From a virus, in IMG/VR virus record IMGVR_UViG_3300015608_001846, positions 120,001-150,835 of that record: a stretch of DNA of 30,835 nt; one strand, 5' to 3'. Positions 6,401-30,835 of the stretch are shown here, piece after piece. The translations under genes were made by a program, and so were the position numbers. The notes beneath the pieces were generated by a model. That model saw nothing but the letters and a program-made list of their open reading frames with translations, searched no databases and was not told the origin of the DNA. The first letter of the stretch is position 1. The number at the start of each line of letters is the position of its first letter.

Positions 6401-6481
6401 GACCGGTTCCTGAGCGACCGGACCAGAAAGGTCGATCTCCTTTGCAGTCACGCCCGCGGAACCGAACTTTAATTGCGCCAT
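3434..6481 (-). CDS. Tail sheath protein, gp18-like, paralog 1 (1015 aa)
   Basis: The N-terminus reads EIDLSGPV..VGVPAGVIGTSLKGPAYVPV. The C-terminus reads WFAPAGFTRG..INPIVSF..WGQKTL..ALDRVNVRRLLIDIRR..KFKVIIDSSTTTQADIENNTLRGKIFVQPTKTIEYVSLDFAV. This parallels the T4 gp18 C-terminal domain (SPAGYNRG..INPV..YGDKT..DRINVRRLFN..YRVVCDTTNNTPSVIDRNEF..IQPARSINYITLNFV, recalled from memory). Confidence 0.88.
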   Translation of the reverse strand: MAQLKFGSAGVTAKEIDLSGPVAQEPVGVPAGVIGTSLKGPAYVPVTVGLVDDFYAKFGPTDGKKFGPLAVSEWMRNASAVTFLRVLGVGDGRRRSTDGSVARAGFTVGEDQPRDSDGTLVGNPYANSGSLSVSGRTYFLGAFMSESAGSTVFSAAGLQGQGSVTAGVNTAVPIIRGVIMAPSGVILRLSSSAEGINSAPASTLVATDTTASGSLIGSVVLLDGQVAKQDFVMLLNGHQGIDSLYPNVITASFDMTSPNYFANVMNRDPLKYQQAGHYLHAFWDVHPSTAVVTGSGLVHAVSGAGGVSGSKSGAEAAAFLTTASLARNTGNSYVPNYEGWTDRYSHARSPWVISQRFGGEATNLFRLHAIDAGSGVSILFKLSIENIAPSSDPSNLYGSFDLIVREWDDNDGSVKPLEQWRGLSLDPRSDRYIAKVIGDANIFFDWDRAESSQKIVIDGNYPNNSNLIRVEVSQEVDNMSVDPTALPFGVRGPLHLVTSGSAPLTSPTSSQITASLVLKRAVEAPLPLRSNITQGSGAKLTFNPLLYWGVQFEHITSLTTPNASTLQNKSLAAFAGYFPSHFETLQDFVVGDNAGTPDTAENSVLDSDRFCRNVFTLENIKVVTSSAGIADSTMWHQATYVRDGNIVADETNKTRKVTVDDFNQSNRRFLKYSFLMQGGSDGVNIFNKDESEINNNAVVADMNDGNRGRNDGPSVRAFAKALDVMKNVVNADVQLLVIPGIRHPIVSNAVVDAVEERFDALYLMDIEQLDNQGDDVVSDTQLPSVQLTAQQFSERALNTSFAAAYFPDVLIQDPTTKTNVYVPPSVVVLGAMALNDKLGHPWFAPAGFTRGSLQTSLEARVQLKKENMDTLYDVNINPIVSFPGNASSGTNPKGGVIVWGQKTLQAGASALDRVNVRRLLIDIRRQVRDIAHTITFEPNREATLAKFSNAITPRLQRIQALAGLEKFKVIIDSSTTTQADIENNTLRGKIFVQPTKTIEYVSLDFAVANNLNQVP

Positions 6482-9600: not shown

Positions 9601-9630
9601 GGGTGACCTAAAAGTCTGTTCTTGAGGCAT
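6619..9630 (-). CDS. Tail sheath protein, gp18-like, paralog 2 (1003 aa)
   Basis: AGGAGAG RBS lies 7-8 nt before the ATG. The N-terminus is EIDLSAPRLTGPVGTPAGVISTSNKGPAFVPV. The C-terminus reads WFAPAGFNRA..INPIATF..YGQKTL..ALDRVNVRRLLLEVKR..FRVVCNETNNTQEDVEANRMRGRVVIVPTRVIEFISLDFII. It is clearly paralogous to 3434-6481 along its full length. Confidence 0.88.
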   Translation of the reverse strand: MPQEQTFRSPNFYQREIDLSAPRLTGPVGTPAGVISTSNKGPAFVPVTVANFDEFSAIFGDLDQKRPGPYAVKEYLTHRSALTFLRVLGAGGNATETDIATSDATGRVKYAGFYLDGNIAAHDSRGRHTGAVQMLVAKHTLQANEAYGMPLFTDNRSYAGAAVNLVRGLVMMASGARMMVLDGNESAVGAFTAAGPDDVATTVNGKFKLVISSTLGNGFVNTDNNPGVKILTASFDPSSADYFGKVLNTDPDRLVQEQHLLYGDFAVDNELATATVVAVLSGSARASTSSGNTSLEMRKAFGAYDTRFTAPKTTKFISQPFGATEYDLFSFEAIDDGEFANRLYKISITNIKASLDESDQYGTFTVQIRDWNDTDASPVVLESYPNCSLNPYAENYVAKLIGDRKVTYNFDATIASERRIVTFGRYNNVSKLVRIVMTDAVERALVPATALPFGFRGIEVIKTNDLLTDVAPSNPRLAGVLGISSGSALSGSILPPVPFRFKVTKGEIPNTATWQGQPGPTELATTQLYWGIKFERNTTPLNPNLTTEKNRLLESFTKFMGIKKLDVLVTGAGADQFNDNKFTLAKVAFSNTAISQLTGTINDHMREAAYVRDANIDLASYTIPSVIGNRITFATLLAKGTAPDFNRFSPYAKFTNMMFGGYDGLNFLDRDARRMNDKATSFDALGGAEPSYVSPGMLTNMNGTGQNNSNVMSYRTAIDIMTEPMAVNVNVLAVPGIRETFITDYAMQRVRDYGLAFYVMDIPSYDDTATRLYDDSTNRPDVDKTAAAVDTRAIDNNYAGTYFPNVFIDDKTNRRRVKVPASVAALGALAFNDRVAYPWFAPAGFNRAALDFVTNVEVRLSVPDRDRLQDSRINPIATFPKLGYVIYGQKTLQIAKSALDRVNVRRLLLEVKRIIISIANKLAFDQNTPAVRNKFVSDSVQQLGLIQAQAGIETFRVVCNETNNTQEDVEANRMRGRVVIVPTRVIEFISLDFIITSSGIAFV

Positions 9631-11694: not shown

Positions 11695-12612
11695 TTAGGC
11701 ATCCGGATCATTCTTGAACTCGGCGTCAGTGATCCGAATGAAACGCAGGCCCTCGGCGTCAAACCAGGCATCCTGCTGACGATCGACGAGCCATTTTCGA
11801 TAGATCCCCATGTCACGGCGATGACCCGACATTCCTGACTCTCTGATCAATTCGATGGGTCGATCGAGGCCGTGCCAGTAGACGCCGTCGAATTGAACGT
11901 ACGTGTCGATGCTCTTGATGTGAAAATCGATCGACCAGCGCTTGTTCATGACGACCTGGCGTTCGACATCATCTTCACCAAATTTCTCGCAGAGCAACTC
12001 ATAGAACGCGTTCTCGGGTTTCGATTGAAACAACGTTCCCTCGCGGGCGCGCTTGTGCAGGACCTCAGCTGCGTGTTCAGCGTTCATCTGATGGTACGGC
12101 ACCCCGTACTTTGCGATCGTACCTGAGATCATTGCCTCGCGGACGTGGACGAGCTGCATCGGGTATTTGACGCCCCAGTTCTTGATCATCGTTGCCTGAC
12201 GTTTTTTGACGATGTCAGGATGTGTTTGAGGATGATCTCCAAAGTTAGCGCGCATCGTCTGCATTGCTTTCGTTCGAACTTCAATCGACGATGGACCCTG
12301 CTCAACACCGTACTTCTTTTTCCACGTAGAACGCATCTTTTGCTTGCATGGCTCAGCCGCGAATGGATTTTCAGCACCGTAGCGTTCTACACAGGTTGCA
12401 GCCCGTTGACGCTCAATCACACCACCATTCTTGTGAGCAATGCTCTTGCATGCCTCAGAACAAGTGTGCACTTTTGTGTGTTTAGCATCAGCTATTGAGC
12501 CACGTGTTTCCCACTCAATGCCGCACACATCACATCGCAAACAAAGAACATTGTGTTTGAAAGATCTACCCAAGCGATCAACTCGAACACCAACCTTCAC
12601 ATCATAAAGCAC
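11695..12612 (-). CDS. Free-standing homing-endonuclease-like protein (zinc motif + YG repeats + Vsr/PD-(D/E)xK-type nuclease core)
   Basis: GTG start. It has an N-terminal cysteine cluster CLRCDVCG..HTCSEAC and degenerate repeats RYGAENPF, KYGVEQGP, NWGVKYPM, KYGVPYHQ. The C-terminal core is SIDFHIKSIDTYVQFDGVYWHGLDR. It is inserted between the gp13-like and gp14-like genes. Confidence 0.65.
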   Translation of the reverse strand: MLYDVKVGVRVDRLGRSFKHNVLCLRCDVCGIEWETRGSIADAKHTKVHTCSEACKSIAHKNGGVIERQRAATCVERYGAENPFAAEPCKQKMRSTWKKKYGVEQGPSSIEVRTKAMQTMRANFGDHPQTHPDIVKKRQATMIKNWGVKYPMQLVHVREAMISGTIAKYGVPYHQMNAEHAAEVLHKRAREGTLFQSKPENAFYELLCEKFGEDDVERQVVMNKRWSIDFHIKSIDTYVQFDGVYWHGLDRPIELIRESGMSGHRRDMGIYRKWLVDRQQDAWFDAEGLRFIRITDAEFKNDPDA

Positions 12613-19554: not shown

Positions 19555-20062
19555 CTCGCTTCGACCTCTTACCTATCTGTTTGGTCTCACGCGAGGCCTG
19601 TGACGTTTTGATGGCCTGTATCGGGTTCCCTGGGTTGGCTCCGACGGGACGAGTTAGCTGAATCGGATCCGGATCATTCTCAAACTTCTGTTGCTGTGCC
19701 AGCTTATCGCGCTCAGCATCGTAAACGTTTTTGATGTCAGCAACGGCACGTTGCAATGCCTCGACGCTGCCTTGTGCTTTAAGTCGGCGGACCTCAGCAT
19801 CGTTGTGTAGCTGCCTCACGATGTCGATACACCGGTTGACGTACGTCTTGCCGTACTCGCCTTCCTTGATTGGTACCTTAGCTCGAGCCAAATCACTGAT
19901 CATCGCCTGTCGGTAGTTCTCCAGCGCCTGCCCAGCCATCCCAAACGCCAGTTTCATAGCATCTAGGTTGTGCAGCTCTTTTTCGTAGAGCTCAAGCAGA
20001 TCATCGACACGTGATCCCACAGCATGTGACCCAGCGACGCGCCCAGATTGAAACTCACTCAC
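19547..20062 (-). CDS. Hypothetical helical protein (possible assembly factor)
   Basis: GTG start. 171 aa, coiled-coil-like charged composition with a basic C-terminus. It lies within the coupled fibre block. Confidence 0.5.
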   Translation of the reverse strand: MSEFQSGRVAGSHAVGSRVDDLLELYEKELHNLDAMKLAFGMAGQALENYRQAMISDLARAKVPIKEGEYGKTYVNRCIDIVRQLHNDAEVRRLKAQGSVEALQRAVADIKNVYDAERDKLAQQQKFENDPDPIQLTRPVGANPGNPIQAIKTSQASRETKQIGKRSKRDG

Positions 20063-20102
20063 GTGATCAATCTAACTTACGACGTCGTCAAGTGTCAGTG
20101 GA

Positions 20103-21707
20103 TCAGCCGTAAATGATCATCGACAGCTGCGAGCCCGATCTGACAGTGAACGGAAACTTTAGGTCACCCGTTGAGATCGTAGTACCCGGATAGACGTCGT
20201 TCGGATCGGCTGACGTCAATCCAGGCAGCAACAAAACGCCGTTGTAGTAGATCTCAACGTCTTTCTTGAAATCACGACCGACGTAGCTGCCCAACTGAGC
20301 ATCGAGGTTGGTCGGGAAGGTGATGTTGGTGTCAGCAACGGTGTCAACGTTGATGCCAGCGGTGTAGCGGCGACGCTTGACGCTCGAAGACAGCGACTGT
20401 GAGATGAAGTTGAAGGCACCAAGCACGCTAGAGACGCCGTAGCCGCTGACAAAGCTGTTCCACTCGATCGTCGACGTCGACAGAGGAATGATACCACCCG
20501 TGTACGTTGAACCGACGCCAAAAAAGTCAGCGAACCTCAACTGAGAACCGCCAGACAGCAACAAGTTGGTGCCGCTCAATGTGTTGACAGTTCCAGCGAT
20601 GACGCCCACGTTGACCTGTGACGTAGCTGACGATGTTGCGACAGAGATGCCTTGATTGAAGCTCGAAGCAACTGAGCTCGAGAAGGCAATACGACTGACA
20701 TTGACAGTCATGGTGTCTTCGGTGTCGGACGACACCAGCTTCCACAACTCGGTAGTACCCGACAAGAATGCCCAAGAAAAACCGGCTGCGATCTGGATGG
20801 CGATGTTCTGTGTCTGGGTGACCGTGCCGGCCTGGTTATCAATGGCACGATCTAACGTGATGTCAGTGAAGGTCAGGCCTCCACCGGCGCCGCCCGCTGA
20901 TTCCGGAACGTCGAGGAAGATCCGGTCACGGAGGTACGCATCCTCCGGGATGTCATCGAGTGACGATCGTCGAACATAGGAGTACGTGATAGCGCGCCCG
21001 CCGACTGCGCCTGCGTTAGCAGGGGTCAGGCTTGAGGTCTGATTGATCGTCACTTCATAGACAAAGGAGATCTGTGATCGGTGTGTCGAATCATTGAACA
21101 CGTCTCCTGTCACAGTGCCGTTCTCTACCTGCAACAGGCCGTAGACATCGCGCCCGTTAGAGGCGGTGATGTTGTTGCCCGACCAGGCGTCGCGGATGAT
21201 GACCAGGTTCTTGGGTGATGTCACTGTCGAACCCGACGTTTGGGCCATGCTGTGCGCAGCGTACGTACCCTCAGAACCACTCAACAGTGCAACGAGCGAT
21301 CCGGTCGCTAGCGTCGACGCCAGGTTTGGGTGGCTGACGACGGCAAAGTTTGCAGGAGCTGTCCCCAGCGCCGAAGACAGAAGGGCAAAGTTGCTACCCG
21401 TCGCGACGCTAACAATGTTGAGGTTGGTGTTCCGGAACAGGAAGCGCTTCTGTTCGAGATCTGTCAGGTCAGAGTTCAACGTGTTCAGACCACGTGCCGA
21501 GTTCGAACCTGACGGAGCTGTGATAGCATCGTACCACGAACCAGACACACCGGCCCAAAGGATGCGACGGATCTGTGATCTGATTGCGTTCAGGTCTGTC
21601 TGGATTGACGTCGACGCTGTCTGCAACGTAGAACCTGCAGCCAGGGTGTCATCAAACTGATCCGACTTAAAGACTTGGGTGGGTTGATCGATGAACGTTC
21701 GAGGCAT
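20103..21707 (-). CDS. Virion structural protein (fibre or baseplate-associated), 534 aa
   Basis: AAGGTG RBS. It is Ser/Thr/Gly/Asn-rich with beta-type composition. The N-terminal segment TDLNAIRSQIRRILWAGVSGSWYD is of a kind seen in phage fibre-like structural proteins. It is preceded by the GAATACTTAC element. Confidence 0.6.
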   Translation of the reverse strand: MPRTFIDQPTQVFKSDQFDDTLAAGSTLQTASTSIQTDLNAIRSQIRRILWAGVSGSWYDAITAPSGSNSARGLNTLNSDLTDLEQKRFLFRNTNLNIVSVATGSNFALLSSALGTAPANFAVVSHPNLASTLATGSLVALLSGSEGTYAAHSMAQTSGSTVTSPKNLVIIRDAWSGNNITASNGRDVYGLLQVENGTVTGDVFNDSTHRSQISFVYEVTINQTSSLTPANAGAVGGRAITYSYVRRSSLDDIPEDAYLRDRIFLDVPESAGGAGGGLTFTDITLDRAIDNQAGTVTQTQNIAIQIAAGFSWAFLSGTTELWKLVSSDTEDTMTVNVSRIAFSSSVASSFNQGISVATSSATSQVNVGVIAGTVNTLSGTNLLLSGGSQLRFADFFGVGSTYTGGIIPLSTSTIEWNSFVSGYGVSSVLGAFNFISQSLSSSVKRRRYTAGINVDTVADTNITFPTNLDAQLGSYVGRDFKKDVEIYYNGVLLLPGLTSADPNDVYPGTTISTGDLKFPFTVRSGSQLSMIIYG

Positions 21708-21745
21708 GGCACCTTGTTGTCAGACCCTCATTATGATCTGTCGAC

Positions 21746-21755
21746 GTAAGTATTC
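21746..21755 (-). promoter_or_regulatory. GAATACTTAC element, candidate phage (late) promoter, 38 nt upstream of ATG 21707
   Basis: Exact copy of the 10-mer at 9669-9678, with identical spacing to the start codon. Confidence 0.35.
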
Positions 21756-21766
21756 GAACAAAGCGC

Positions 21767-22480
21767 CTAGTAAGGGTATGTCGCTGCTAGGTTGCTGCCG
21801 CTTCGATAGGCGTTATTCATCCGGATGGTCGATCCTCCTATGACCACATAGTCAGAATCGTTGCCTTGTTTTTGCAGCACACCGTTAACATAGAACATCA
21901 ATGACGATAGAGGAGATGGAACCTGCGACAGGGTGAAGTCAGTGTTGACACCGTCGTTTGATCCGGATGGGATCTCCATCCACGCCATCGACAACGAGCT
22001 GGTCACGACGGTCGTGTACGGATACGTCGCTGCTAGGTTGCTGCCGCTTGGACACGAAAATGCGAGGCGGGCAACGTTAGTCGTCGCCATCACGTAGTCG
22101 CTGTCGAGCCCCTGGGTGAGCAACACACCGTTGAGGTATAGCATCAACGACGACAACGGGTTGGGAACGTTGCTAAGGGTGAAGTCGGTGTTAAGTCCGT
22201 CGGCTGAGCCAGATGGGATCTCCATCCAAGCGATCTGCGTAGTACCCCCGCCTCCGCCGGCGCCCGTCGATGAAATGACCAGATCACCGCCCGGACCACC
22301 ATCAGTTATGGTTATGTTCGATCCCGCCTTGAGCCTCCTGGCAGCCGCAGGAACAAAGCCGCTCGAGCCTGAGACCAACAACCACGGTGAAGTGGTGACA
22401 CACAAGTCTAGGGTATCATGGCTCACTTGACCAGAATTGTCAAGCTCTCCATGGTCGGTCACTACCCTAGTTGCCGTCAT
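21767..22480 (-). CDS. Fibre-like protein with two tandem C-terminal ~73-aa domains
   Basis: AGGAAC RBS. The N-terminus has DHGELDNSGQVSHDTLD and LKAGSNITITDGGPGGDLVISS fibre-type motifs and a Gly5 linker. These are followed by two copies of AWMEIPSGS.DG.NTDFTLS.VP.PLSSLM.Y.NGVL...G.DSDYV......SGSNLAATYPY. Confidence 0.7.
   Translation of the reverse strand: MTATRVVTDHGELDNSGQVSHDTLDLCVTTSPWLLVSGSSGFVPAAARRLKAGSNITITDGGPGGDLVISSTGAGGGGGTTQIAWMEIPSGSADGLNTDFTLSNVPNPLSSLMLYLNGVLLTQGLDSDYVMATTNVARLAFSCPSGSNLAATYPYTTVVTSSLSMAWMEIPSGSNDGVNTDFTLSQVPSPLSSLMFYVNGVLQKQGNDSDYVVIGGSTIRMNNAYRSGSNLAATYPY
21770..22234 (-). repeat. Intragenic tandem duplication: two 219-nt domain units (22016-22234 and 21770-21988), period 246 nt
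   Basis: The protein repeats are aa 83-155 and 165-237. Similarity is also visible at DNA level, e.g. tcgctgctaggttgctgccgctt at ~21781 and ~22027. Confidence 0.8.
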
Positions 22481-22518
22481 CTAATGGGTTCCTGATCGTC
22501 AAGCAAATTACAACGAGA

Positions 22519-22839
22519 TCAACCACCGTGCGACTTGATGGCACGTTCCTGTCGTTGTGCAGCGGCCTTTGATGCATGCGTCCCAAGACGTCGACGCTTG
22601 CCGCCCTTGCGGCCTTTGGTGTAGAGGCACCACTGTGACCCACAGCGACGAATGATCTCACTGACCAGGTCGCGGATCAACGATCGCACCTCATCGAGTC
22701 GTTCATTGTCGGACGATGCATCATCGGTTCCGTCAGCAGTCGTCAACGTCATCGACCCCCTCGACGAGGGCGCTCGATAACCAAGACTGGTGCCTGATGT
22801 AGCCGCCGTCTTTGCTTGCTCGTTTTTTCTGGGTGGCAT
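22519..22839 (-). CDS. Hypothetical small basic protein
   Basis: 106 aa. It has an internal RLDEVRSLIRDLVSEIIRR helix resembling the LKRLIKEE motif, and a basic C-terminus KGRKGGKRRRLGTHASKAAAQRQERAI. Confidence 0.5.
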   Translation of the reverse strand: MPPRKNEQAKTAATSGTSLGYRAPSSRGSMTLTTADGTDDASSDNERLDEVRSLIRDLVSEIIRRCGSQWCLYTKGRKGGKRRRLGTHASKAAAQRQERAIKSHGG

Positions 22840-22877
22840 GGGTGCGTACTAACGATGGTGAATGTTGAAATCTCAAC

Positions 22878-23657
22878 TTAGCCCGCAAGCGTTTCTTGAT
22901 TGATGCTTCGGCGAATTCTTGACACAGCGGCTCTAACTGAACCATGCGTAACACCTAATCTAGCAGCAATCTCCAACATCGTAAGCTTACTATGAAAGTA
23001 GTACTCTCTTATTGCATCCTCGTCTCCTGGCTTAAGCATGCTTGTTCCTGGAGTGCGACAGTGGTAAGATCGATCTTTGTGTCGACGGTTACGCTTTAGT
23101 GCCCAACGCTGACACCATGGCCAACGTTGAATTCTTACCCGTGGAGAAAATCCATGCCGCGTTAAGAAGCTCGAAAGGCAGCTAGCTGTACACCTAAGTT
23201 CCTTGCTAATTTCGTTCAACGACGCACCGTGATCGAGGCGGTCGATGATTGCGACGATTTGTTGATCATCAATCTTGCGCATTGATTTTCGTCGCTCAAG
23301 AGACAGTGTTTTCCCTGCATGGACTTTAGAAATTCTAGCTCGAGTCAGGGCGCACGGGCGTGCGCCCCCGATTCCTCCTTCGTTCATGTTGTAACCGATC
23401 ATCGGATCGTTTGAACGATGCTCAATGATCAATTCGCTCTCACGTCGAAAGGCTTCTTCCTCAGTCGACAGTTCTTCAAGCACGCTGAACAAGAATCTAT
23501 CAATGCCGTATTTTTTGATCGCAGCGCGAATCATCATCCCATTTTTGTCATCGATCCTTGTGTAGTTTTTCCACCTAGCAACTGGATCATTTGACTTACC
23601 AATGTAGATCTTGCCGTTAAGAATGTTAACGATCTTATATACATAAGATGATCTCAT
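22878..23657 (-). CDS. GIY-YIG family homing endonuclease (Seg-like), free-standing
   Basis: The N-terminus YVYKIVNILNGKIYIGKS carries the GIY..YIG motifs. Downstream are R..H-region residues, KYGIDRFLFSVLE and GYNMNEGG. The C-terminal region is helix-turn-helix-like. By eye it is more A/T-rich than its neighbours. The start overlaps the endolysin stop (ATGA). Confidence 0.85.
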   Translation of the reverse strand: MRSSYVYKIVNILNGKIYIGKSNDPVARWKNYTRIDDKNGMMIRAAIKKYGIDRFLFSVLEELSTEEEAFRRESELIIEHRSNDPMIGYNMNEGGIGGARPCALTRARISKVHAGKTLSLERRKSMRKIDDQQIVAIIDRLDHGASLNEISKELRCTASCLSSFLTRHGFSPRVRIQRWPWCQRWALKRNRRHKDRSYHCRTPGTSMLKPGDEDAIREYYFHSKLTMLEIAARLGVTHGSVRAAVSRIRRSINQETLAG

Positions 23658-24433
23658 TGAATTTTCAAAACCTCAAAATGCATACCGTCAGGTCGTCTGA
23701 GGTAGTGGCCTCCCCAAGCGAAACCGTGCTCGTTTGCAATGCCAACCAGCTCGCGTACGCTGCCTTTCTGCCCCTTGAGGGCAGGACGCGCACCTAACAT
23801 GTTCCATGCAACGTTGATGTCAAACGCTGTCCCCCAGGCGTGGTTCGACAACGAGGTACGCGAACCTCTGACGAACCGTGGTGCAAACGATCCACCCCAC
23901 GTCAACACGCGATCGATGAGCCCCGCAGAATCCCAGGCCGCAAAGACACCTTGCAACTGGCTAGCACAACGTTTGTTAAACGGAACCTTGGTCGATGTTG
24001 CGTAGGCTACGCCTTTTAACTGAGGGACGTCGACGTTGATGATGTTTTGAGCGATCCAATCACCATGGATGACAATCCCTTCGGGATTGCCAAGGGTTGG
24101 CATCGGAGAGTATGAAAACCTGCCAAAGTCATTTTCACGTTGTTGAAGGCTAGGCACAACCCATCCATCAGGTGGCGGGGGCCAATTGGGTCCAAATTCA
24201 TCATCGCTGTCATCGATCGTCGGATCGAAGCCAGAATGCATCGCAGATGCCAGCGTCTGTGGACCGACAACGCCGTCATCAGCCAGACAACAGGCTGCTT
24301 GGAACTGGCGTGTGGCTACCATCGTTTGCGGATCAAACGCTCCAGTGACTATGATCGATCGACCGGTACCCACCAAGAAGTGTTGCCACCTTTCCACGTC
24401 CGACCCAGACATTCCCTGTCGCAGAACGCGCAT
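23654..24433 (-). CDS. Endolysin: N-terminal peptidoglycan-binding domain + C-terminal zinc peptidase M15 (VanY / L-Ala-D-Glu peptidase-like)
   Basis: GGAGGTGA RBS lies 5 nt before ATG 24433. The PG_binding_1-like segment is GMSGSDVERWQHFLVG..GAFDPQTMVATRQFQ..LADDGVVGPQTL. The metal-ligand pattern is SNHAWGTAFD (H-x6-D) and RPDGMHFE (D-x-x-H). Confidence 0.85.
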   Translation of the reverse strand: MRVLRQGMSGSDVERWQHFLVGTGRSIIVTGAFDPQTMVATRQFQAACCLADDGVVGPQTLASAMHSGFDPTIDDSDDEFGPNWPPPPDGWVVPSLQQRENDFGRFSYSPMPTLGNPEGIVIHGDWIAQNIINVDVPQLKGVAYATSTKVPFNKRCASQLQGVFAAWDSAGLIDRVLTWGGSFAPRFVRGSRTSLSNHAWGTAFDINVAWNMLGARPALKGQKGSVRELVGIANEHGFAWGGHYLRRPDGMHFEVLKIQ

Positions 24434-24533
24434 CACTCACCTCCGTTCATTCAATGGTCTTGACGAATCGAAATCACTGGAGCGTTTGTTTTGGGAGTCA
24501 GCCATGTCGAAATCCATCCTCGATTCGTGATCG

Positions 24534-25136
24534 TTAAATATGCCTACGACGCAGGACGACCGGTTCTCCAGCCATCGGCTTGGTCAATTCCCAAGTTGGG
24601 TTGGCAACCAACCATTCATCGATCGCGGGTTTGACACCAGCATGGCGGTGTGAATCATCACGTGGTGTGCAACCCTTGACGTGTTCGTACCCTGGTCGCT
24701 CTGCGTACCACAGGTCACGCTCAGACCACTTACCATCATAATCATCAACGATGACAATGCCACCCGGCCGGACCAGGTCATCAAACAACGCAGCCTCCTG
24801 AACGACTGTCGGGTAGTTGTGATCACCGTCAAGCAATAACAGATCAAACTTGAGACCTTGCTGCACCAGCTTGGGCATCAGTTGAAGGCTGTTCTCTTCG
24901 ACGAGGTAGGCCTGTTGTTCAGCAGTCCGATCGAGATTGTCCAACACGATCCTGACCTGCTCCTGCACCATGACATCGACACCCAGCGCCAAGAAGGCCG
25001 GCTGTGACCTGACGAGGAAGGTGACCAGCGTCATGAACGACACCCCACGATCGACACCGATTTCGATCATTGTCGGTGGATGTTTTAAAGAATTGAGGTG
25101 TGCCTTAGCGTAACCCAAAAGTCCATGGTATGCCAC
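24534..25136 (-). CDS. Class I SAM-dependent methyltransferase (Methyltransf_24-like; substrate unknown)
   Basis: Motif I is MIEIGVDRGVS. LLLLDGDHNYPTV and GGIVIVDDY are typical of this small MTase group. The GTG start at 25136 is uncertain. Confidence 0.7.
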   Translation of the reverse strand: MAYHGLLGYAKAHLNSLKHPPTMIEIGVDRGVSFMTLVTFLVRSQPAFLALGVDVMVQEQVRIVLDNLDRTAEQQAYLVEENSLQLMPKLVQQGLKFDLLLLDGDHNYPTVVQEAALFDDLVRPGGIVIVDDYDGKWSERDLWYAERPGYEHVKGCTPRDDSHRHAGVKPAIDEWLVANPTWELTKPMAGEPVVLRRRHI

Positions 25137-25170
25137 GTAGTCATCTTACAACGCCTTACCACGACTTGAC

Positions 25171-25209
25171 AAATAAAGCACGTGAGGGAAGCGTAAATGC
25201 TTCCCTCAC
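25171..25209 (-). terminator. Rho-independent terminator
   Basis: 11-bp GC-rich stem with a 6-nt loop (gtgagggaagc-gtaaat-gcttccctcac, 25182-25209). On the minus strand it is followed by GUGCUUUAUUU. It lies 29 nt after the stop of ORF 25238-25465. Confidence 0.65.
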
Positions 25210-25237
25210 ACACGAAGTTCAATTGTCTTGTTTGAGC

Positions 25238-25465
25238 TTAGCCCGCTGCTAGCATGAACTGCACTGCAGCCTTGACACGTTCCTGCAGCTCGGTTGGAAG
25301 CGCCGACAGCAACACGTAGTTCTCGATACGAGAAACGTTCTCCACAGGACCACCCACGACTTGGTCAGCACGGGGTGTGACGCCCACACGCAGGACCAGC
25401 GGCGCAGGTCCAGTGACGGAGTTGATCATGGGTTGGTAGAGGTTGACTCGTTGGACGTGGTTCAT
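25238..25465 (-). CDS. Hypothetical small protein (75 aa)
   Basis: ATG start. Tightly packed on the same strand. No family recognised. Confidence 0.45.
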   Translation of the reverse strand: MNHVQRVNLYQPMINSVTGPAPLVLRVGVTPRADQVVGGPVENVSRIENYVLLSALPTELQERVKAAVQFMLAAG

Positions 25466-25471
25466 GGTTAA

Positions 25472-25672
25472 CTATGACTTGAGCAGTTGCTTGTTCTCGT
25501 TCAACGCACGGTTAGCAATGCTCAATTGCTGCCGCAGCTGGTCCAACGTTAACCTGATCTGCACGACACGTGTTTGATCACCTGCCGCAGCAGCCTCAGT
25601 TAGTGATTTTTCATAATCGTTGATCTGTTCAAGCAACAGTTCTGTTGATGCTGACATGCCTGTAAGTATCAA
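25472..25672 (-). CDS. Hypothetical small coiled-coil protein
   Basis: The listed start is TTG at 25672. ATG 25657 (MSASTELLLEQINDYEKSL...) is the more likely start and is preceded by GATACTTAC-AGGC. Confidence 0.45.
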   Translation of the reverse strand: MILTGMSASTELLLEQINDYEKSLTEAAAAGDQTRVVQIRLTLDQLRQQLSIANRALNENKQLLKS

Positions 25673-25689
25673 CTACACGTCGTCAGTGT

Positions 25690-25920
25690 TCAACCGTACC
25701 AAGCACGTTGCACGATCCCATTGACAACGTCGACGTTGAGTCGACGTTCATCGGGTTCAGGCTTGTACGACCGCAAGCAGACGCCGTCGAGCTTGTTGAC
25801 GACGAGCCGGCTACCGTTCGAACGAGCACGAACAAACGCTTCAGCGAGGACCATGCCGATGGCTGGGTGAAGGTGTTTCACAGCTGAACCTCGAGGTTCA
25901 CGTGATCTGTTCGCAGACAT
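25690..25920 (-). CDS. Hypothetical small protein (76 aa)
   Basis: ATG preceded by a GAGG RBS. Same-strand packing. No family recognised. Confidence 0.45.
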   Translation of the reverse strand: MSANRSREPRGSAVKHLHPAIGMVLAEAFVRARSNGSRLVVNKLDGVCLRSYKPEPDERRLNVDVVNGIVQRAWYG

Positions 25921-25949
25921 CTTTGTACCTCACGTAATGAGCATGTGTT

Positions 25950-26699
25950 TCACACATGACCCAATCGGATCACTTGACCTGTCTTGTCCCACTTCTGGGT
26001 GGATGACAAGATAAAATCGACCTGTTCTTCTACTGTGGTGGTCTGGTTGTTGACACGGATGAGCAAAACGTTGCGACGCAAAGCTTCATCCTCTTCAATG
26101 CTATCGCGTAGTTGGGTTCTTTGAAAATCGTGGCCTTCGTGCACTTGACGAAAGTGCCATTCACCGTCGCTCTCGACCCAAACGTTTCCGTCTTCAGAGA
26201 CGATGTCAACATCAAATGACAGACCATCGACGGTCACCTGCTTGTGACGCTTGAAACCGTGAGGTCGTAATGCCTCAGAAAGAGCACGTTCAGCTTTGGA
26301 TGATGAACGAGCACATGTTGAATTCAGCATTGCTCTGATGCCTTTCAAGCATGTTTCAGGATCACGAGCGTACGTTTGCTTCATTGAAGCACTTTTCTTT
26401 GCTCGTGACTCTGGCGTCTGTTCACGTGAAGCAGCACACTTTTTTGAACACGTTTTCCTGACGTGTCCCTTACGTTCCGGTGAGTACGTCACCTCAAATG
26501 AGGTGCCACACTTGCACGTCCGAGTCTCAACGACGGTCGTCTTGAGACCGTAGCGTTTGATCGAGCTAACTCGAGCGTTCTCTCTGAGCCGACGCAAACC
26601 ATCGTCTGTGTAGGTCGAGGGTTTGTGATGCCAGCGAACGTGGTTTGCTTTCGCTTGGAAGCTTTCAAATTGTTGATCGCATTCATCACACGTCCACAT
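25950..26699 (-). CDS. Homing-endonuclease-like protein: C2H2-type zinc finger + Vsr/PD-(D/E)xK-type nuclease core
   Basis: The N-terminal CDECDQQF..HVRWHH is C2H2-like, and there is a second cysteine cluster CKCG..CSKKC. The C-terminal core is LSFDVDIVSEDGNVWVESDGEWH. It starts 46 nt after the tmRNA 3' end. Confidence 0.6.
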   Translation of the reverse strand: MWTCDECDQQFESFQAKANHVRWHHKPSTYTDDGLRRLRENARVSSIKRYGLKTTVVETRTCKCGTSFEVTYSPERKGHVRKTCSKKCAASREQTPESRAKKSASMKQTYARDPETCLKGIRAMLNSTCARSSSKAERALSEALRPHGFKRHKQVTVDGLSFDVDIVSEDGNVWVESDGEWHFRQVHEGHDFQRTQLRDSIEEDEALRRNVLLIRVNNQTTTVEEQVDFILSSTQKWDKTGQVIRLGHV

Positions 26700-26744
26700 G
26701 AAAGTAACTATCTAGTGAAGTGTGGAAGCATTCAAAATAGAACC

Positions 26745-27101
26745 TGGTGGAGATGGGGAGAGTTGAACTCCCATCCGCGACACTTCTTCACAACGCATCT
26801 TCACAGGCTTGGTCCGTCTGATCGATCGACCTCAGGACGGGTCTAGAGGGTTCTTTTATGCCCACCCACAAGGGCATTCGCCTTAACGTCGCGCTGACGT
26901 TTGTCGATCCAGGTCGCTGGACCGGCCGCCCAGTGTGCTGTTTCTAGGTCACTGGAAACCCATCCTGCTACGCCGCGAGGGCGAGCGAGGCGATGCCGTT
27001 ATCGTTGGCGTCTATACGTCGTATGGGTTGTTAAACCGGACCCTCACGCACCGGTGCCTGCAACGCTATGCTTCTATGCCACGTCGAAACCTGTCATCCC
27101 C
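26745..27101 (-). ncRNA. ssrA: tmRNA (transfer-messenger RNA), standard one-piece, 357 nt, CCA encoded
   Basis: The minus strand starts GGGGAUGACAGGUUUCGACGUGG and ends GGAUGGGAGUUCAACUCUCCCCAUCUCCACCA. The acceptor stem GGGGAUG/CAUCUCC has a G3:U70 wobble. The T-arm is GGGAG-UUCAACU-CUCCC, followed by discriminator A and CCA. An internal tag frame follows UAUAGAC. There is no credible protein ORF in this 446-nt gap. Confidence 0.9.
26968..27009 (-). other. tmRNA tag-peptide reading frame: ANDNGIASLALAA + UAG
   Basis: GCC AAC GAU AAC GGC AUC GCC UCG CUC GCC CUC GCG GCG UAG. The resume codon GCC is preceded by UAUAGAC (compare E. coli AAUAGUC-GCA). The C-terminal LALAA is typical of ClpXP-recognised ssrA tags. 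Confidence 0.8.
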
Positions 27102-27145
27102 TTGTGATCGATATGTACCACACTCGATCGATAGTTGCACTACGT

Positions 27146-27511
27146 TTAGTGTTTGTTCTTGCGGTGTTTGTTGGGCCTAGGCATGTGTGGTAAAGGTGGA
27201 CCACCCTTCCTCGGGAGGGGGTACGCCGCCGCGGTGAGGACCTCATCGTCATCATCAGTCATGATATCATTGCTACCGACGGTCGACTCATCGCGTGGCG
27301 CGGGCGGAGGCGATGACGAAAATACGTCATTCAACAGCACAGAACCGCGGCGGTCGTCAGAATCGAGGGCGGCGAAGATGCATGCCTTGAGACGATTGTG
27401 AACCTGTCGCAGCTGCACATCGTCTATCGTCCGACACGGTGCAGCATTCAACGTCACCTGTAGCAGGTCGTACAACGCCAAGAGCTCTTTGTGGTTTAAA
27501 TTGAATTTCAT
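27146..27511 (-). CDS. Hypothetical protein (acidic centre, Pro-rich and basic C-terminus)
   Basis: The preferred start ATG 27511 overlaps the upstream TAA (TAATG). The N-terminus is MKFNLNHKELLALYDLLQ. It ends 44 nt before the tmRNA 5' end. Confidence 0.5.
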   Translation of the reverse strand: MKFNLNHKELLALYDLLQVTLNAAPCRTIDDVQLRQVHNRLKACIFAALDSDDRRGSVLLNDVFSSSPPPAPRDESTVGSNDIMTDDDDEVLTAAAYPLPRKGGPPLPHMPRPNKHRKNKH

Positions 27512-28053
27512 TAGACGGCCACGTTGTACGTCAAGCCAGACGAAAGCAAGGTAATCCAATCTGGATGGAACTTATTGACTTGGAACTTTCGATAGATCAG
27601 CCCAAAGCTAGGGTCGTTGATCCGAACCGACAAAGTTCGTCCCGATCGACAGATCGCCGACACTCCTTCGGAGGAGTCACCGTCAACACGTAACACACAC
27701 GTTCTGCTATAACTGCCAGTGCTGGCATCAGTCAGGATGTCGACGTTCTCGAGCGGCCCTATTTGCCCTAAGGGAGACACCTCACGGGCACGCAAAGGCT
27801 TGAGCCTGTGCAGGTCATCGGCATTGACGACGTTGACCTTTTTTTCAGGGTCGTCTTCTACGCTCCCTTTGACAGCATCATCAATGAAGTCATCTTCGGG
27901 TTCGCACTTGACATCATCGACTTCGTCGTCACCGATGACAAACCCCTTAAGGCCCTCGATGAGCTCTCTGCCCTTCGAGGGAAGTTTAGCGCGTCGATCG
28001 AGCATGACAAGATCGACCAAGAGATCGAGTGCCTTGTGCCGCAAAAGCATCAT
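27511..28053 (-). CDS. Hypothetical acidic protein
   Basis: 180-aa ORF with a double ATG start. The N-terminus MMLLRHKALDLLVDLV loosely resembles that of the next ORF. No family recognised. Confidence 0.5.
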   Translation of the reverse strand: MMLLRHKALDLLVDLVMLDRRAKLPSKGRELIEGLKGFVIGDDEVDDVKCEPEDDFIDDAVKGSVEDDPEKKVNVVNADDLHRLKPLRAREVSPLGQIGPLENVDILTDASTGSYSRTCVLRVDGDSSEGVSAICRSGRTLSVRINDPSFGLIYRKFQVNKFHPDWITLLSSGLTYNVAV

Positions 28054-28085
28054 AATTTCAGATTTCTATCCTTTCAATGCAGGAA

Positions 28086-28110
28086 GGCAGCAAGCCTTGG
28101 GCTTGCTGCC
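28086..28110 (-). terminator. 11-bp stem / 3-nt loop hairpin (probable terminator, weak U tract)
   Basis: ggcagcaagcc-ttg-ggcttgctgcc, 36 nt after the stop of ORF 28146-28403. The minus-strand downstream sequence is UUCCUGCAUU. Confidence 0.45.
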
Positions 28111-28145
28111 CAATCATCATTCACTGGGTGAACGCTGCAACAGGC

Positions 28146-28403
28146 TCAAAGCGCCTTGCCATTGACGCTGTAGTGCCTGCTCAGCAAGCGATACAGCGTC
28201 CGTGCATCATGACCCGACAGTCGGAATGCCCGTCCAGAGTGACCCACGTCGATGAAGAGGTTGGTGCTGTTCTTGCGTGAGTCGGTGGTGACTGCAAAGT
28301 CAAAACCGCTGTCACGCCCGTCAGTCTCAGTGCGAGACTTTCCGGTACGATCAGTGCGAGAGATGATGCGTGCATTGCGGTTTGCCGTGTAGCTGTTGTT
28401 CAT
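28146..28403 (-). CDS. Hypothetical small protein (85 aa)
   Basis: ATG preceded by AGAGGTAAG. It is the first gene after a 200-nt non-coding region. Confidence 0.5.
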   Translation of the reverse strand: MNNSYTANRNARIISRTDRTGKSRTETDGRDSGFDFAVTTDSRKNSTNLFIDVGHSGRAFRLSGHDARTLYRLLSRHYSVNGKAL

Positions 28404-28605
28404 GTTTTCTTACCTCTGCTCGTCGGCTTAATCCGACTGACAAGGACAACATAACACAGTGTGAGATTGTGTACAAAAAGCCCTATCACAACAGAGCACC
28501 GCTAGCCTCTTTGTCTTAGAATATTCAGCAATATACGACCATAGACCAACCCAACATTGGGTCACGAACACTCTACGAGGGCAACGGTGGGCCGAAAACA
28601 CGGGT

Positions 28606-29088
28606 TCACGTCTCTGGAAATGGCCACCATGACGGTGCTTGGGCCCGGGGATGCCAGCGAGCGAAGAGCGATTTCTCGGCGATGTAGTAGCAACGGTAGG
28701 CTGTGACCGGGTCCCCTGGGATGCGCCACTCGTTGGGCATCGCCTGGGCAAACCCAGCGGCACGGGTCCAATCGCCGGGAGAAGCGAGCTGGGACCAGAA
28801 CGCAGCCAGCTTCACCTCGGTCGCATGGATCCGGTGGTAACGCCGTGTGTACTCATCACACAGCCCCAAGAAGTGCTCCTGGAGCCAGGCCTGGTTGCCG
28901 AGTGAAGCTGCTGTCCACTTGACACAGGGGTGGTGTTGGTGCGTCGGAAGGTAGGGAACATCGACGCCACGTTTGTGGGCAACGGTGCACAGGATCTGTG
29001 CTGATTCCACGATCATCTTGACGACGTGCTTGTTGCACATCATCGTCGCTGCCTCACGAGGGTCGAGCGACAGGACAAAAATGTTCAT
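28606..29088 (-). CDS. Conserved hypothetical protein (family with N-terminal MNIFVLS.DP..AA....KHVVKM..ESAQIL signature)
   Basis: 160 aa. It carries the motifs PTHQHHPCVKW, CDEYTRRY and AYRCYYIAEK. I recall this signature from a family widespread in phages, large DNA viruses and bacteria, sometimes annotated as pyrimidine-dimer-glycosylase-like. I cannot verify this here. Confidence 0.6.
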   Translation of the reverse strand: MNIFVLSLDPREAATMMCNKHVVKMIVESAQILCTVAHKRGVDVPYLPTHQHHPCVKWTAASLGNQAWLQEHFLGLCDEYTRRYHRIHATEVKLAAFWSQLASPGDWTRAAGFAQAMPNEWRIPGDPVTAYRCYYIAEKSLFARWHPRAQAPSWWPFPET

Positions 29089-29147
29089 TCGATGTCAGGT
29101 TACCACGGACGCCTGTCTTTGATACACCCACATGTAGACAAATTTAA

Positions 29148-29438
29148 TCAGACGATCCGAACGCTTCTAACAGCAACAGGGTAGTCTTCATTGTTCACGA
29201 CAACGTTCAACAGGCTATCATGAACAATGCCCTCAATCTCTCCTGTGACCCCGCCACCTTTGAGTGCAGAAACAAGCGCACCTTTGACAGCGTCGATCCC
29301 GTGTTCGAGCACTGCATCAGTCGCATCGATCTCAAGCTGAATCGATAGAGTGATGTTTGAAGACGTCGACTCGAGCTCTTCTTTGATGATGGAACGCAAT
29401 TGACGCTGTGAGATCCGGATATGCATTTGTTTATGCAT
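29148..29438 (-). CDS. Small protein with N-terminal LRSIIKEELE motif
   Basis: The preferred start ATG 29438 lies 1 nt after the upstream TAG (29440-29442). The listed 29501 start would overlap the upstream gene by 60 nt. The N-terminus is MHKQMHIRISQRQLRSIIKEELEST. Confidence 0.55.
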   Translation of the reverse strand: MHKQMHIRISQRQLRSIIKEELESTSSNITLSIQLEIDATDAVLEHGIDAVKGALVSALKGGGVTGEIEGIVHDSLLNVVVNNEDYPVAVRSVRIV

Positions 29439-29439
29439 G

Positions 29440-30835
29440 CTACGTTCGACGGAAAACGACCAATGACTCAGCCTTGGGCTTCCTGCCCTTCGCACGAGCA
29501 AAGTGATCGACCTTCACGGGTAGGGTGACATCTTCCACGTGCTCAAAGCCGACCGACCGACCCGCTGCGATGATAACGCTTCGCAGGTCTTCATCGATGT
29601 TAATGACGCAGAACCTCGACGGTCGAAGCCCAACATGGGCGGCTGCCAACGTGGGGACGAGGTAGTTCTTTGTCCACGAATCGATGTCGGGATGATCTCG
29701 CCAACATTGGCCTGGTTCATCAACATACCTCTCTTTGTTGAAGTAAGGAGGTGACGTAAACACCATGTCCAACGACTCGGGTTTTGGTCGATAGTTCTCT
29801 GAACCCATCGTCAACAGATTGACACTGATCTCTGGTAGGACCTTGACGAGCTCCTCCGCCAACCTCACAGCGTCATCGCACATCATCATTGAAGGATCTG
29901 TACCCACGTACGTGCCTCGAGGGTACTGAGCAGCAAAGCCCAACAGTCGTGCAGAGAACCCGATCGATGGATCCCAAACAACTGGCCGTTCAACGTCTCC
30001 TAAAAACGTTCGATAAACGTCACATGCCAGGCTTGGGTTGAACCACGACACTGCCTTGCGTTGAACGATAAAACCTCGCCTGATCTCTTTGAAAGAAACA
30101 TCAAAAGTCTCATGTGCAGTAACCTTGTCACCCGATGACAAGGCATACTCATACGGCATGCTGTTGTTGAGCCCAAGTCGATACCTCAACACGCTTCGAA
30201 GGGCGCGGTCGTCATCAAATGCCCGACGGGGTCCGTCATCAACGTCCCAAAACGAACGAACGAATGATTTAAGCCACAGCGACGCATGTCGTCCAGCTGA
30301 TGACGACCTTAGGTCATCGAGGGCCTCTCGAAGAACTCCCGTTTGTGGCATGTAGAACCACCCGTATGTTGACACGTAAGCCCGGAGAAAGAACTCTAGG
30401 GCCGGCAAGAGCTGGTCTTCGACCCAAGTCGCATCCGCAGTCAGCAACGTTTCACGAGCGATGATGACATCGTCATCCGAAAGACGACGACGATCATCCT
30501 TCAACGTCTTCCCGCTGACAATCGCCTTATACGATCGACAGATCAGTTCATCGAGCGTCTTGCAACCTGACAGATCGCTGTCTTCTTTGAACCGAATGAG
30601 CGTCATCGACCTAGACGCTACGAGTGAATCCTTGTCGAGGTCATTTGCCATCGTGATCAATTGGTCGACTGTGAAATCTCGCGTTCTATCGAGACCGTGC
30701 CAATAGACACCATCGATCTCAATCAAGGCTTGTTGTGTGGGTAACCACACATCCACACACATGGTTCTTTCTGTAAAGTTGAACCACTTGCTAGCCTCCG
30801 CGTCGGGAAAATTCGTCCTTATTTGTTCATAGGCT
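29440..30835 (-). CDS. Fusion protein, 5'-partial: Vsr/PD-(D/E)xK-type nuclease domain + amino-type (N6-A or N4-C) DNA methyltransferase domain
   Basis: The frame stays open upstream of the listed ATG 30762 to the window edge (..AYEQIRTNFPDAEASKWFNFTERT-MCVDVW..). The nuclease core is VDVWLPTQQALIEIDGVYWHGLDR (30685-30723). The MTase motif I-like segment is VVWDPSIGFSARLLGF (~29938-29979) and motif IV is TSPPYF (SPPY at 29743-29754). There is no stop between the domains. Confidence 0.75.
   Translation of the reverse strand, partial: AYEQIRTNFPDAEASKWFNFTERTMCVDVWLPTQQALIEIDGVYWHGLDRTRDFTVDQLITMANDLDKDSLVASRSMTLIRFKEDSDLSGCKTLDELICRSYKAIVSGKTLKDDRRRLSDDDVIIARETLLTADATWVEDQLLPALEFFLRAYVSTYGWFYMPQTGVLREALDDLRSSSAGRHASLWLKSFVRSFWDVDDGPRRAFDDDRALRSVLRYRLGLNNSMPYEYALSSGDKVTAHETFDVSFKEIRRGFIVQRKAVSWFNPSLACDVYRTFLGDVERPVVWDPSIGFSARLLGFAAQYPRGTYVGTDPSMMMCDDAVRLAEELVKVLPEISVNLLTMGSENYRPKPESLDMVFTSPPYFNKERYVDEPGQCWRDHPDIDSWTKNYLVPTLAAAHVGLRPSRFCVINIDEDLRSVIIAAGRSVGFEHVEDVTLPVKVDHFARAKGRKPKAESLVVFRRT

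Follow-up and report, generated by a model that had tools for sequence, protein, structure and literature searches.

A complete one-piece tmRNA gene in phage DNA

The DNA analysed here, 30,835 nucleotides that make up positions 120,001 to 150,835 of the IMG/VR virus record IMGVR_UViG_3300015608_001846 (the window, to which coordinates refer unless a locus is named), contains a gene for a transfer-messenger RNA (tmRNA, ssrA). An initial annotation had placed a complete one-piece tmRNA on the minus strand at 26745-27101, and both ARAGORN and a full-length match to Rfam family RF00023 gave exactly these coordinates (89.1 bits, E 1.3e-33, model positions 1-374 of 374; the gathering score of the model is 47). 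RF00023 was the best Rfam family, and the gene, which is 357 nt long, is in standard order with no circular permutation. Copies 100% identical to it were found in six other assemblies.

The RNA begins with GGGGAUGACAGGUUUCGACG. Its first seven nucleotides, GGGGAUG (27095-27101), form the 5' strand of the acceptor stem, and a script that checked pairing found all seven pairs with 26749-26755 (tmRNA positions 1-7 with 347-353), including G3:U351, the alanine identity pair. The region 26745-26772 holds the T arm GGGAG-UUCAACU-CUCCC, in which all five stem pairs form, followed by the acceptor 3' strand CAUCUCC, the discriminator A and an encoded CCA, such that the gene encodes ACCA. Strand reading and the pair check thus recovered the 5' end, the G3:U pair, the T arm and the CCA end described in the initial annotation, which together constitute a tRNA-Ala-like domain. 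In relatives the acceptor stem carries compensatory changes (GGGGGCG/CGCCUCC).

The tag frame occupies 26968-27009. The Rfam alignment places the resume codon at GCC (tmRNA position 93, window position 27009), from which 13 codons encode ANDNGIASLALAA before a UAG that ends at 26968; alignment and translation agree with the frame first proposed. A different tag, beginning EPSRPV, which ARAGORN reported for positions 249-314 of the window copy, was rejected as a miscall, because Rfam aligns the resume codon at GCC and because ARAGORN itself gives ANDNG[ITV]APLA[LF]AA at the homologous site in relatives.

The window matched a 322,887-bp contig (ENA ERZ27282949) nearly exactly, with 100% identity over a 16.5-kb overlap and 1 mismatch over an 11.7-kb overlap, and exact-protein look-ups detected near-identical copies of the window in several other assemblies. 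Nearly all of its substantial open reading frames (ORFs) lie on the minus strand. Profile searches identified two tail-sheath genes, a neck/adaptor protein, an M15 endolysin with a peptidoglycan-binding domain, a GIY-YIG homing endonuclease, several other nuclease ORFs, a denV-like glycosylase and methyltransferases. Upstream of the tmRNA region are a T4-type portal gene with inteins, a prohead protease gene and two capsid-type genes (one with a Gp23 match); downstream, beyond the sheath genes, are gp13-like, gp15-like and baseplate genes. Since T4-type head, neck, sheath and baseplate genes flank the tmRNA region, we assign the genome (about 323 kb) to a T4-like jumbo phage. The tmRNA gene lies by itself, with the head module on one side and the tail module on the other, outside any tRNA cluster. 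GenBank phage records gave no nucleotide match in a sensitive blastn search with the tmRNA or in a megablast search with positions 20000-30835, and the closest GenBank capsid, at 50% identity, was that of the uncultured 484-kb huge phage LR756508. Single-protein searches of IMG/VR with the endolysin and with orf180, an ORF upstream of the tmRNA, gave no match.

It had been proposed that the gene is phage-encoded, as opposed to a host ssrA that served for integration. Phage genes on both sides and the same position in diverged relatives (see below) support this conclusion. In line with the earlier reading, no integrase was found among the ORFs scanned in the window and the fetched flanks, and there was no duplicated attachment core: the 3' 28-mer of the tmRNA had no second copy in the window when up to 3 mismatches were allowed. 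The close spacing of the neighbours was also as described: the stop of the upstream ORF (27146) lies 44 nt away, and 45 nt separate the gene from the downstream ORF (26699).

Positional conservation in an uncultured phage clade

A capsid search revealed a large uncultured clade with 75-86% capsid identity and contigs of up to 357 kb. Three of its members (L025, L026 and L027; 82-86% capsid identity) carry a tmRNA at the same position as the window phage, scoring 81-93 bits on RF00023, with the tags ANDNGTAPLAFAA, ANDNGIAPLALAA and ANDNGVAPLALAA. When a degenerate pattern over the resume and tag region was run on IMG/VR, 22 loci were retrieved, and 21 of these hold a tmRNA of the same family, either full-length or end-truncated. 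About 25 family members were found, at the same position, and the order and orientation of the neighbours are kept (orf85, orf121, tmRNA, orf76, orf66, orf75, methyltransferase, lysin). Syntenic flanking proteins are just 30-69% identical across the related loci, and the tmRNA itself is 59-85% identical across the family. The best explanation is that the tmRNA is an old, positionally fixed component of this sub-clade, inherited vertically within it, and such fixity argues for a function.

All family tags begin with ANDNG, a start that was partly forced by the search pattern. They end in LALAA, LAFAA, LAIAA, MALAA, VRLAA, VRIAA, QRLAA, SRLAA, LRLAA or YATAA, that is, in a hydrophobic residue ([LIFT]) followed by Ala-Ala. 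The middle of the tag varies among relatives (for example IAS, TAP, FADDVR or LTSLR), and the frame, the stop and the ...AA end are kept. GCC, GCG, GCA and GCU are all used for the last Ala codon among the members, as selection acting on the peptide would predict.

Ten further IMG/VR loci (L001-L010), which share the 5' 20-mer GGGGATGACAGGTTTCGACG, were considered as relatives and rejected; they represent a different group of viral tmRNAs that is alike only in the tRNA-like domain. In most of these the tag is ANSRSAFALAA and the surroundings are tRNA genes, on contigs that reach 154 kb, and several of the tmRNAs were found by Rfam but missed by ARAGORN.

Covariation in the helices of the family

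Inspection by eye of 19 distinct, aligned family members gave the proposed helices, and pairing was scored on two alignments. In the hand alignment, 99% of the cells in the acceptor stem were paired, with double changes in 4 pairs; the corresponding values were 91% and 7 pairs for P2a, and 100% and a total of 6 pairs for the two stems of PK1. The second scoring used a MAFFT alignment of 15 sequences (A3) and covered 81 pairs, comprising P2, PK1, the stop-codon helix, five small H-type pseudoknots and the T stem. Because one 5' gap is misplaced in this alignment, scoring of the acceptor stem was confined to the hand alignment, and the stem lies outside the 81 pairs. In A3, 91.5% of the cells were paired, as compared to 32-43% with slid partners, and changes on both sides were seen in 50 of the 81 pairs. 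None of 500 shuffles matched the observed covariation values on any measure.

The long P2 helix (5' strand within 27056-27083, partner at 26776-26808) is fully paired in the window copy (P2a 8/8, P2b 4/4 and P2d 8/8 pairs), and 81-97% paired with compensatory changes family-wide. The T stem is 100% paired throughout the family, with double changes in four of its five pairs. PK1 (ACCGG/CCGGU and GGG/CCC; 27025-27055) lies upstream of the resume codon; both of its stems were 100% paired in the 15 sequences, in which six of its eight pairs showed double changes. PK2 (26930-26961) consists of GGGU/ACCU and CCAGUG/CACUGG stems (tmRNA positions 141-144:153-156 and 147-152:167-172) around the loop ACCUAGAAACAG; the stems were confirmed by the pair check, and covariation was seen in the corresponding helices 9-10. 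The two 3'-proximal pseudoknots (26812-26877) are built from AUGCCC/GGGCAU with GGGU/ACCC (225-230:239-244 with 235-238:251-254) and GACC/GGUC with GUCC/GGAC (259-262:271-274 with 264-267:287-290). All four stems are completely paired in the window copy, and the homologous helices 15-18 covary in the family.

Between these elements, the central region of the window copy (26879-26923) is sequence-divergent. The pair check gave a 7-bp hairpin (26906-26923; tmRNA positions 179-185:190-196), which stands in place of the third pseudoknot of the relatives, and an ACGUC/GACGU stem with a weak second stem of 3 bp (26879-26900). In the relatives, pseudoknots 3 and 4 are backed by covariation (helices 11-14). 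The fold of the family is thus PK1 followed, after the tag, by five compact H-type pseudoknots, and the window copy has three clear pseudoknots, one plain hairpin and one weak pseudoknot after its tag. It is 15 nt shorter than its relatives, and the helices that it keeps are perfectly paired. The initial annotation had suggested a search for pseudoknots PK1-PK4; a ring of pseudoknots is indeed present, although the number after the tag differs from the textbook three. Covariation supports the fold of P2, PK1, the stop-codon helix and, in the relatives, the five small pseudoknots.

Resemblance to alphaproteobacterial tmRNAs

The tag had been suggested as a clue to a proteobacterial host, and this held only loosely. 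Tag-level patterns matched permuted two-piece genes of Acetobacteraceae (Alphaproteobacteria) with the tag ANDNGRET[MV]ALAA, and several motifs of the phage RNA point to alphaproteobacterial tmRNA, but ANDNG tags also occur in Spirochaetota, in one-piece genes with the tag ANDNG[NT][FL]ALAA. A pattern specific to the phage family had no match in 185,579 species genomes. The tmRNAs of spirochaetes were 44-51% identical to the phage family and that of E. coli 44-47%; an origin of the phage tmRNA from spirochaetes is unsupported, as their tmRNAs are no closer overall than that of E. coli.

More specific features are common to the phage family and alphaproteobacterial tmRNAs. The PK2 layout G(G)GGUUC-stem-ACCUNGNAACAGAA-stem is present in both the family and the alphaproteobacterial genes and RF01849 consensus, as are 'CGGUUCAAAA' after PK1 and the ANDN start of the tag. 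An AA[AC]AGAA core downstream of the tag was seen in all 18 other family members and in 22/22 alphaproteobacterial genes, and in just 1 of 26 spirochaete genes. In most relatives, the sequences of T stem and acceptor do not differ from the alphaproteobacterial consensus. Of the three alphaproteobacterial signatures considered (T loop GGCNGUA, D loop GAAAUAG and PK2 loop ACCUGGCAACAGAA), the window copy has the last, as ACCUAGAAACAG, and its T loop is canonical. The T and D loop signatures are limited to a subgroup of four loci (tmRNAs at L048 11978-12351, L049 959-1329, L051 4231-4601 and L037 5666-6036), which have a GGCAGUA or GGCAGCG T loop together with the D-loop analogue GAAAUAG. This pairing suggests either that the two interacting loops evolved in a coupled way or that the tRNA-like domain was exchanged with that of a host gene. 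On a global scale, a hidden Markov model of the family gave only local matches to de-permuted alphaproteobacterial sequences, and the bacterial genes compared had been chosen by their tags; both points weaken the case for a simple origin from alphaproteobacteria. That the family has an affinity to alphaproteobacterial tmRNAs, and that its host is hence likely to be an alphaproteobacterium, is plausible but not established.

Alphaproteobacterial ssrA genes are typically permuted. It is possible, though we hold the idea only tentatively, that the tmRNA of the clade descends from the permuted two-piece alphaproteobacterial type, regained or kept the one-piece order in phages, grew five small pseudoknots and became a fixed core gene of T4-like phages of roughly 300-350 kb, with a nuclease gene (probably for a homing endonuclease) repeatedly occupying its 3' flank. 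If so, the phage tmRNA would fit the alphaproteobacterial SmpB and ribosome without two-piece maturation by the host, and its gene would be a homing landmark for the nuclease. The link, if it holds, would also hint at the host of a clade that has not been cultured, and would give a second case of a permuted tmRNA gene back in standard order. The sole precedent that we found for such a return is a re-permuted mitochondrial tmRNA gene (PMC11915505). It could serve as a precedent if the phage gene came from a permuted ancestor of alphaproteobacterial type; unlike the phage gene, it belongs to mitochondria, has no tag frame and is unconnected with phages.

Two permuted genes of alphaproteobacterial type were also encountered. 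The first (L039 700-1056, minus strand; RF01849, 100 bits) lies on a 133-kb IMG/VR phage contig that is non-syntenic with the clade; its tag, ANDNGVLESRLAA, has the same prefix, its intervening sequence is 86 nt long and its PK2 is similar to that of the one-piece family. The second (L096 3486-3785, minus strand; RF01849, 212 bits; tag ANDNGDMALAA) is on a 3.8-Mb contig of a metagenome-assembled genome labelled Dehalococcoidia, a label or binning that may be wrong.

Neighbouring genes and transcription signals

The ORF that starts 45 nt downstream of the tmRNA (25950-26699, minus strand) encodes a 249-aa nuclease, probably a free-standing homing endonuclease, that matched PHROG 559 (4.3e-14) and, weakly, DUF559 and zinc-finger Pfam families. 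A homologue in L036 is intact (55% identity) and begins 30 nt after the tmRNA, the homologue in L027/L035 is frameshifted (58% identity, 46 nt after the tmRNA), and L040 holds a remnant; most other family members have no copy of it. A patchy gene at one constant junction is the pattern of free-standing homing endonucleases, and the nuclease is therefore predicted to home at or near the tmRNA gene. The Seg and Mob enzymes of T4-like phages are likewise intergenic nucleases that are patchy among close relatives and lie beside conserved genes; in comparison with these, the family assignment of the window nuclease comes from PHROG 559 and the weak Pfam matches, and its mobility is a prediction.

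Upstream of the tmRNA is orf121 (27146-27511, minus strand; 121 aa), a conserved ORF whose synteny with the tmRNA was seen by tblastn in 16 of the 24 related loci checked. Its product is helical and acidic with a proline-rich basic tail. It is followed, further upstream, by orf180 (27511-28053, minus strand), which is likewise conserved. In the two products, helical N-termini that resemble each other (MKLN.N.KELLALYNLL and MKL.K.QALDL.K.L) precede acidic stretches, and the two may be paralogues.

A sigma-70-like site, TTGAAA-17-TATGAT (28077-28049), is placed upstream of orf180 and is preceded by a perfect 11-bp hairpin (28086-28110; the whole element spans 28049-28110, minus strand); the unit with the tmRNA may begin here. 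At the other end, a terminator-like 15-bp stem with a T-rich tail after it (25178-25213, minus strand) is a possible end of the unit. The hairpin and the terminator that had been proposed to bound a transcription unit are therefore both present, as consensus matches. It is plausible that the tmRNA is co-transcribed and processed from a polycistronic RNA.

In most relatives, a conserved CCTTGACA motif ends 25-30 nt before the 5' end of the tmRNA. It resembles a -35 element, with no good TATAAT-type -10, and suggests a dedicated promoter in these phages. In L025, L026, L027, L030, L033, L034, L038, L040, L041, L044, L046 and L048 the upstream motif, at 25-45 nt before the tmRNA, takes the form (C/T)CTTGACA(A/T)CCTAG. 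The window copy does not have the motif, and processing from a longer transcript would therefore be the more likely route here. As a promoter motif within the window, CTTGACA was rejected; it is enriched but not positioned at promoters. The window has no copy of the T4 late-promoter motif TATAAATA.

A proposed role in ribosome rescue and alternative explanations

We consider it likely that this is a functional tmRNA gene of a T4-like jumbo phage, whose product would use the alanyl-tRNA synthetase (AlaRS), SmpB and EF-Tu of the host to free stalled ribosomes and tag incomplete proteins. For its expression, processing, charging, dependence on host SmpB and selective benefit we infer the following course. 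The RNA would be transcribed during infection, in the window phage probably as part of an orf180-orf121-tmRNA-nuclease unit, and would mature like a tRNA, with RNase P acting at the 5' end and trimming of the 3' end to the encoded CCA. Host AlaRS would charge it with alanine via the G3:U pair, host SmpB and EF-Tu would then bind, and the RNA would enter ribosomes stalled on broken or non-stop mRNAs. Translation would resume at GCC, append the 13-residue tag and free the ribosome at UAG, and the tagged peptide would be passed to host ClpXP-type proteases via its ...LAA end. During a long infection, in which host mRNA would be degraded and expression of host ssrA may fall, the phage would benefit from a ribosome pool kept free and from recycled amino acids.

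Several observations weigh against this interpretation. No ORF resembling SmpB was found in the window or the fetched flanks (about 60 kb of the genome, roughly one fifth), and to function the RNA must therefore draw on the SmpB of the host or of a phage gene not seen here. The absence of an SmpB-like ORF from the window had been noted before, and both the profile searches and a test of orf121 bore it out: as a hidden SmpB, orf121 was rejected after a PDB profile search gave nothing relevant and hhalign returned a probability of 1%. The window copy is moreover the most divergent member of the family (59-68% identical to the others), its central pseudoknots are weakened, one to a plain hairpin and one by its 3-bp second stem, and it lacks the upstream motif. 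Finally, no tmRNA lies within 10 kb of the capsid gene in L028 and L029 (75-77% capsid identity) or near that of LR756508; the gene is therefore not universal in the wider group.

Three other explanations have to be weighed, each of which is much less likely than a working phage tmRNA. The RNA might modulate trans-translation of the host, either as a decoy for SmpB or through a phage-specific tag that redirects tagged proteins. Such a role would be in keeping with the tRNA-like-domain-only (TLD-only) tmRNA of mycobacteriophage DS6A, which has been reported to inhibit host tmRNA (PMC4131195, PMC11915505), with the differences in the middle of the tag between relatives (IAS, TAP, FADDVR and LTSLR) and with the lack of a phage SmpB in the sequence at hand. 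We regard it as improbable, however, because the gene is full-length, the resume codon, frame, stop and degron-like ...[LIFT]AA end are conserved and PK1 covaries, none of which a decoy would need; the ANDN start and LAA end of the tag are also the same as in ordinary bacterial tags. More doubtful still is the reading of the RNA gene as a passenger, in decay or neutral, that was acquired in a single event, perhaps with the nuclease gene pulling it along, and has lost its function. The divergence of the window copy, its missing upstream motif, its two weakened central pseudoknots and the adjoining, probably mobile nuclease gene could all be read in this way. Yet the helices that it keeps are perfectly paired, the tag frame is intact, compensatory substitutions are abundant in the family, the position was retained while flanking proteins fell to 30-69% identity, and the nuclease gene is absent from most of the family members that keep the tmRNA.

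Least weight of all, and close to none, can be given to a host ssrA at the junction of a prophage or genomic island, or to an assembly chimera of host and phage DNA. Although tmRNA genes commonly serve as integration sites (PMC4383910, PMC12595487), the gene has phage genes on both sides for tens of kb within a 323-kb T4-like contig, with no integrase among the scanned ORFs and no repeat of the 3' 28-mer in the window. The junctions are identical in independent assemblies from several samples and recur in diverged relatives, and the family-specific pattern over the tag region had no match in the 185,579 bacterial and archaeal species genomes. A working phage tmRNA thus remains the reading that we prefer.

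Comparison with known tmRNAs

In common with the standard one-piece tmRNA (RF00023), the phage gene has the same order, a tRNA-like domain with the G3:U pair, T arm and CCA, a long P2, PK1 before an Ala resume codon, a short tag ending in LAA and a downstream ring of pseudoknots. It differs in being encoded by a phage and in the pseudoknots that follow the tag, of which its relatives have five small H-type ones where three larger ones are usual; the family is just 44-51% identical overall to E. coli or spirochaete tmRNA. The alphaproteobacterial two-piece tmRNA (RF01849) and its phage copies (Melnitz and pelagimyophages, PMC9004378; L039) have the PK2 layout, the 'CGGUUCAAAA' after PK1 and the ANDN start in common with the phage family, whereas the window gene is in standard order with a canonical T loop.

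Phage tmRNAs have been described in Bxz1-type mycobacteriophages and Bacillus phage G, with the TLD-only form in DS6A (PMC4131195), and huge phages from metagenomes carry tmRNA and SmpB (PMC7162821). In a survey, 402 of 18,146 phage genomes (about 2.3%) had a tmRNA, with two-piece forms among those of pelagimyophages (PMC9004378), and the current tmRNA database holds 79 distinct phage sequences (PMC11915505). Like the window gene, the known phage tmRNAs are complete, are found in large lytic genomes without integrases and have been proposed to sustain translation during infection. The window gene differs from these in standing alone between the head and tail modules and in its positional conservation across a whole uncultured clade. 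Such genes had been described before, in a minority of large phages, and the present case is real and not surprising; it does not overturn current understanding. What is added here is the clade-wide conservation of position together with a covarying six-pseudoknot fold, the recurrence of a nuclease gene at the 3' flank, and modules of alphaproteobacterial type in a gene of standard order. A well-supported phage tmRNA with covarying structure thereby joins a short list. Being stable and conserved in position in the clade, and not a sporadic capture, the gene argues that ribosome rescue truly benefits these phages. With about 20 distinct sequences and numerous compensatory changes, the alignment of the family is a resource for asking how much variation in the pseudoknot ring and the tag is compatible with a working tmRNA.

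Other features of the window and the clade

Nuclease-type ORFs are unusually dense, with at least four in 31 kb (PHROG 3339/559, GIY-YIG, PHROG 559). Together with a 660-aa methylase-like ORF, which has an HNH-like N-terminus and extends past the end of the window, with 440 aa inside, they lie at 370-1359 (plus strand) and, on the minus strand, at 11695-12612, 22878-23657, 25950-26699 and 29440-30762.

A peptide deformylase gene is present in the head module just after the prohead protease gene in L025 (6045-6560), L026 (6105-6599) and L027 (6038-6535); no Pfam deformylase match was recorded at the homologous place in the window's own lineage (L019). The portal gene of the clade (L019 1-606; L025 and L027 1-~4000) has a product of 1500-1940 aa with two or three intein-splicing domains and an HNH domain, and the portal of L026 is uninterrupted (689 aa). 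The two tail-sheath genes of the window (3434-6481 and 6619-9630, minus strand) are adjacent, full-length paralogues of about 1000 aa each that are 34% identical over their whole length. Both are much longer than the T4 sheath protein, and L028 has a gene of about 1004 aa at the same place.

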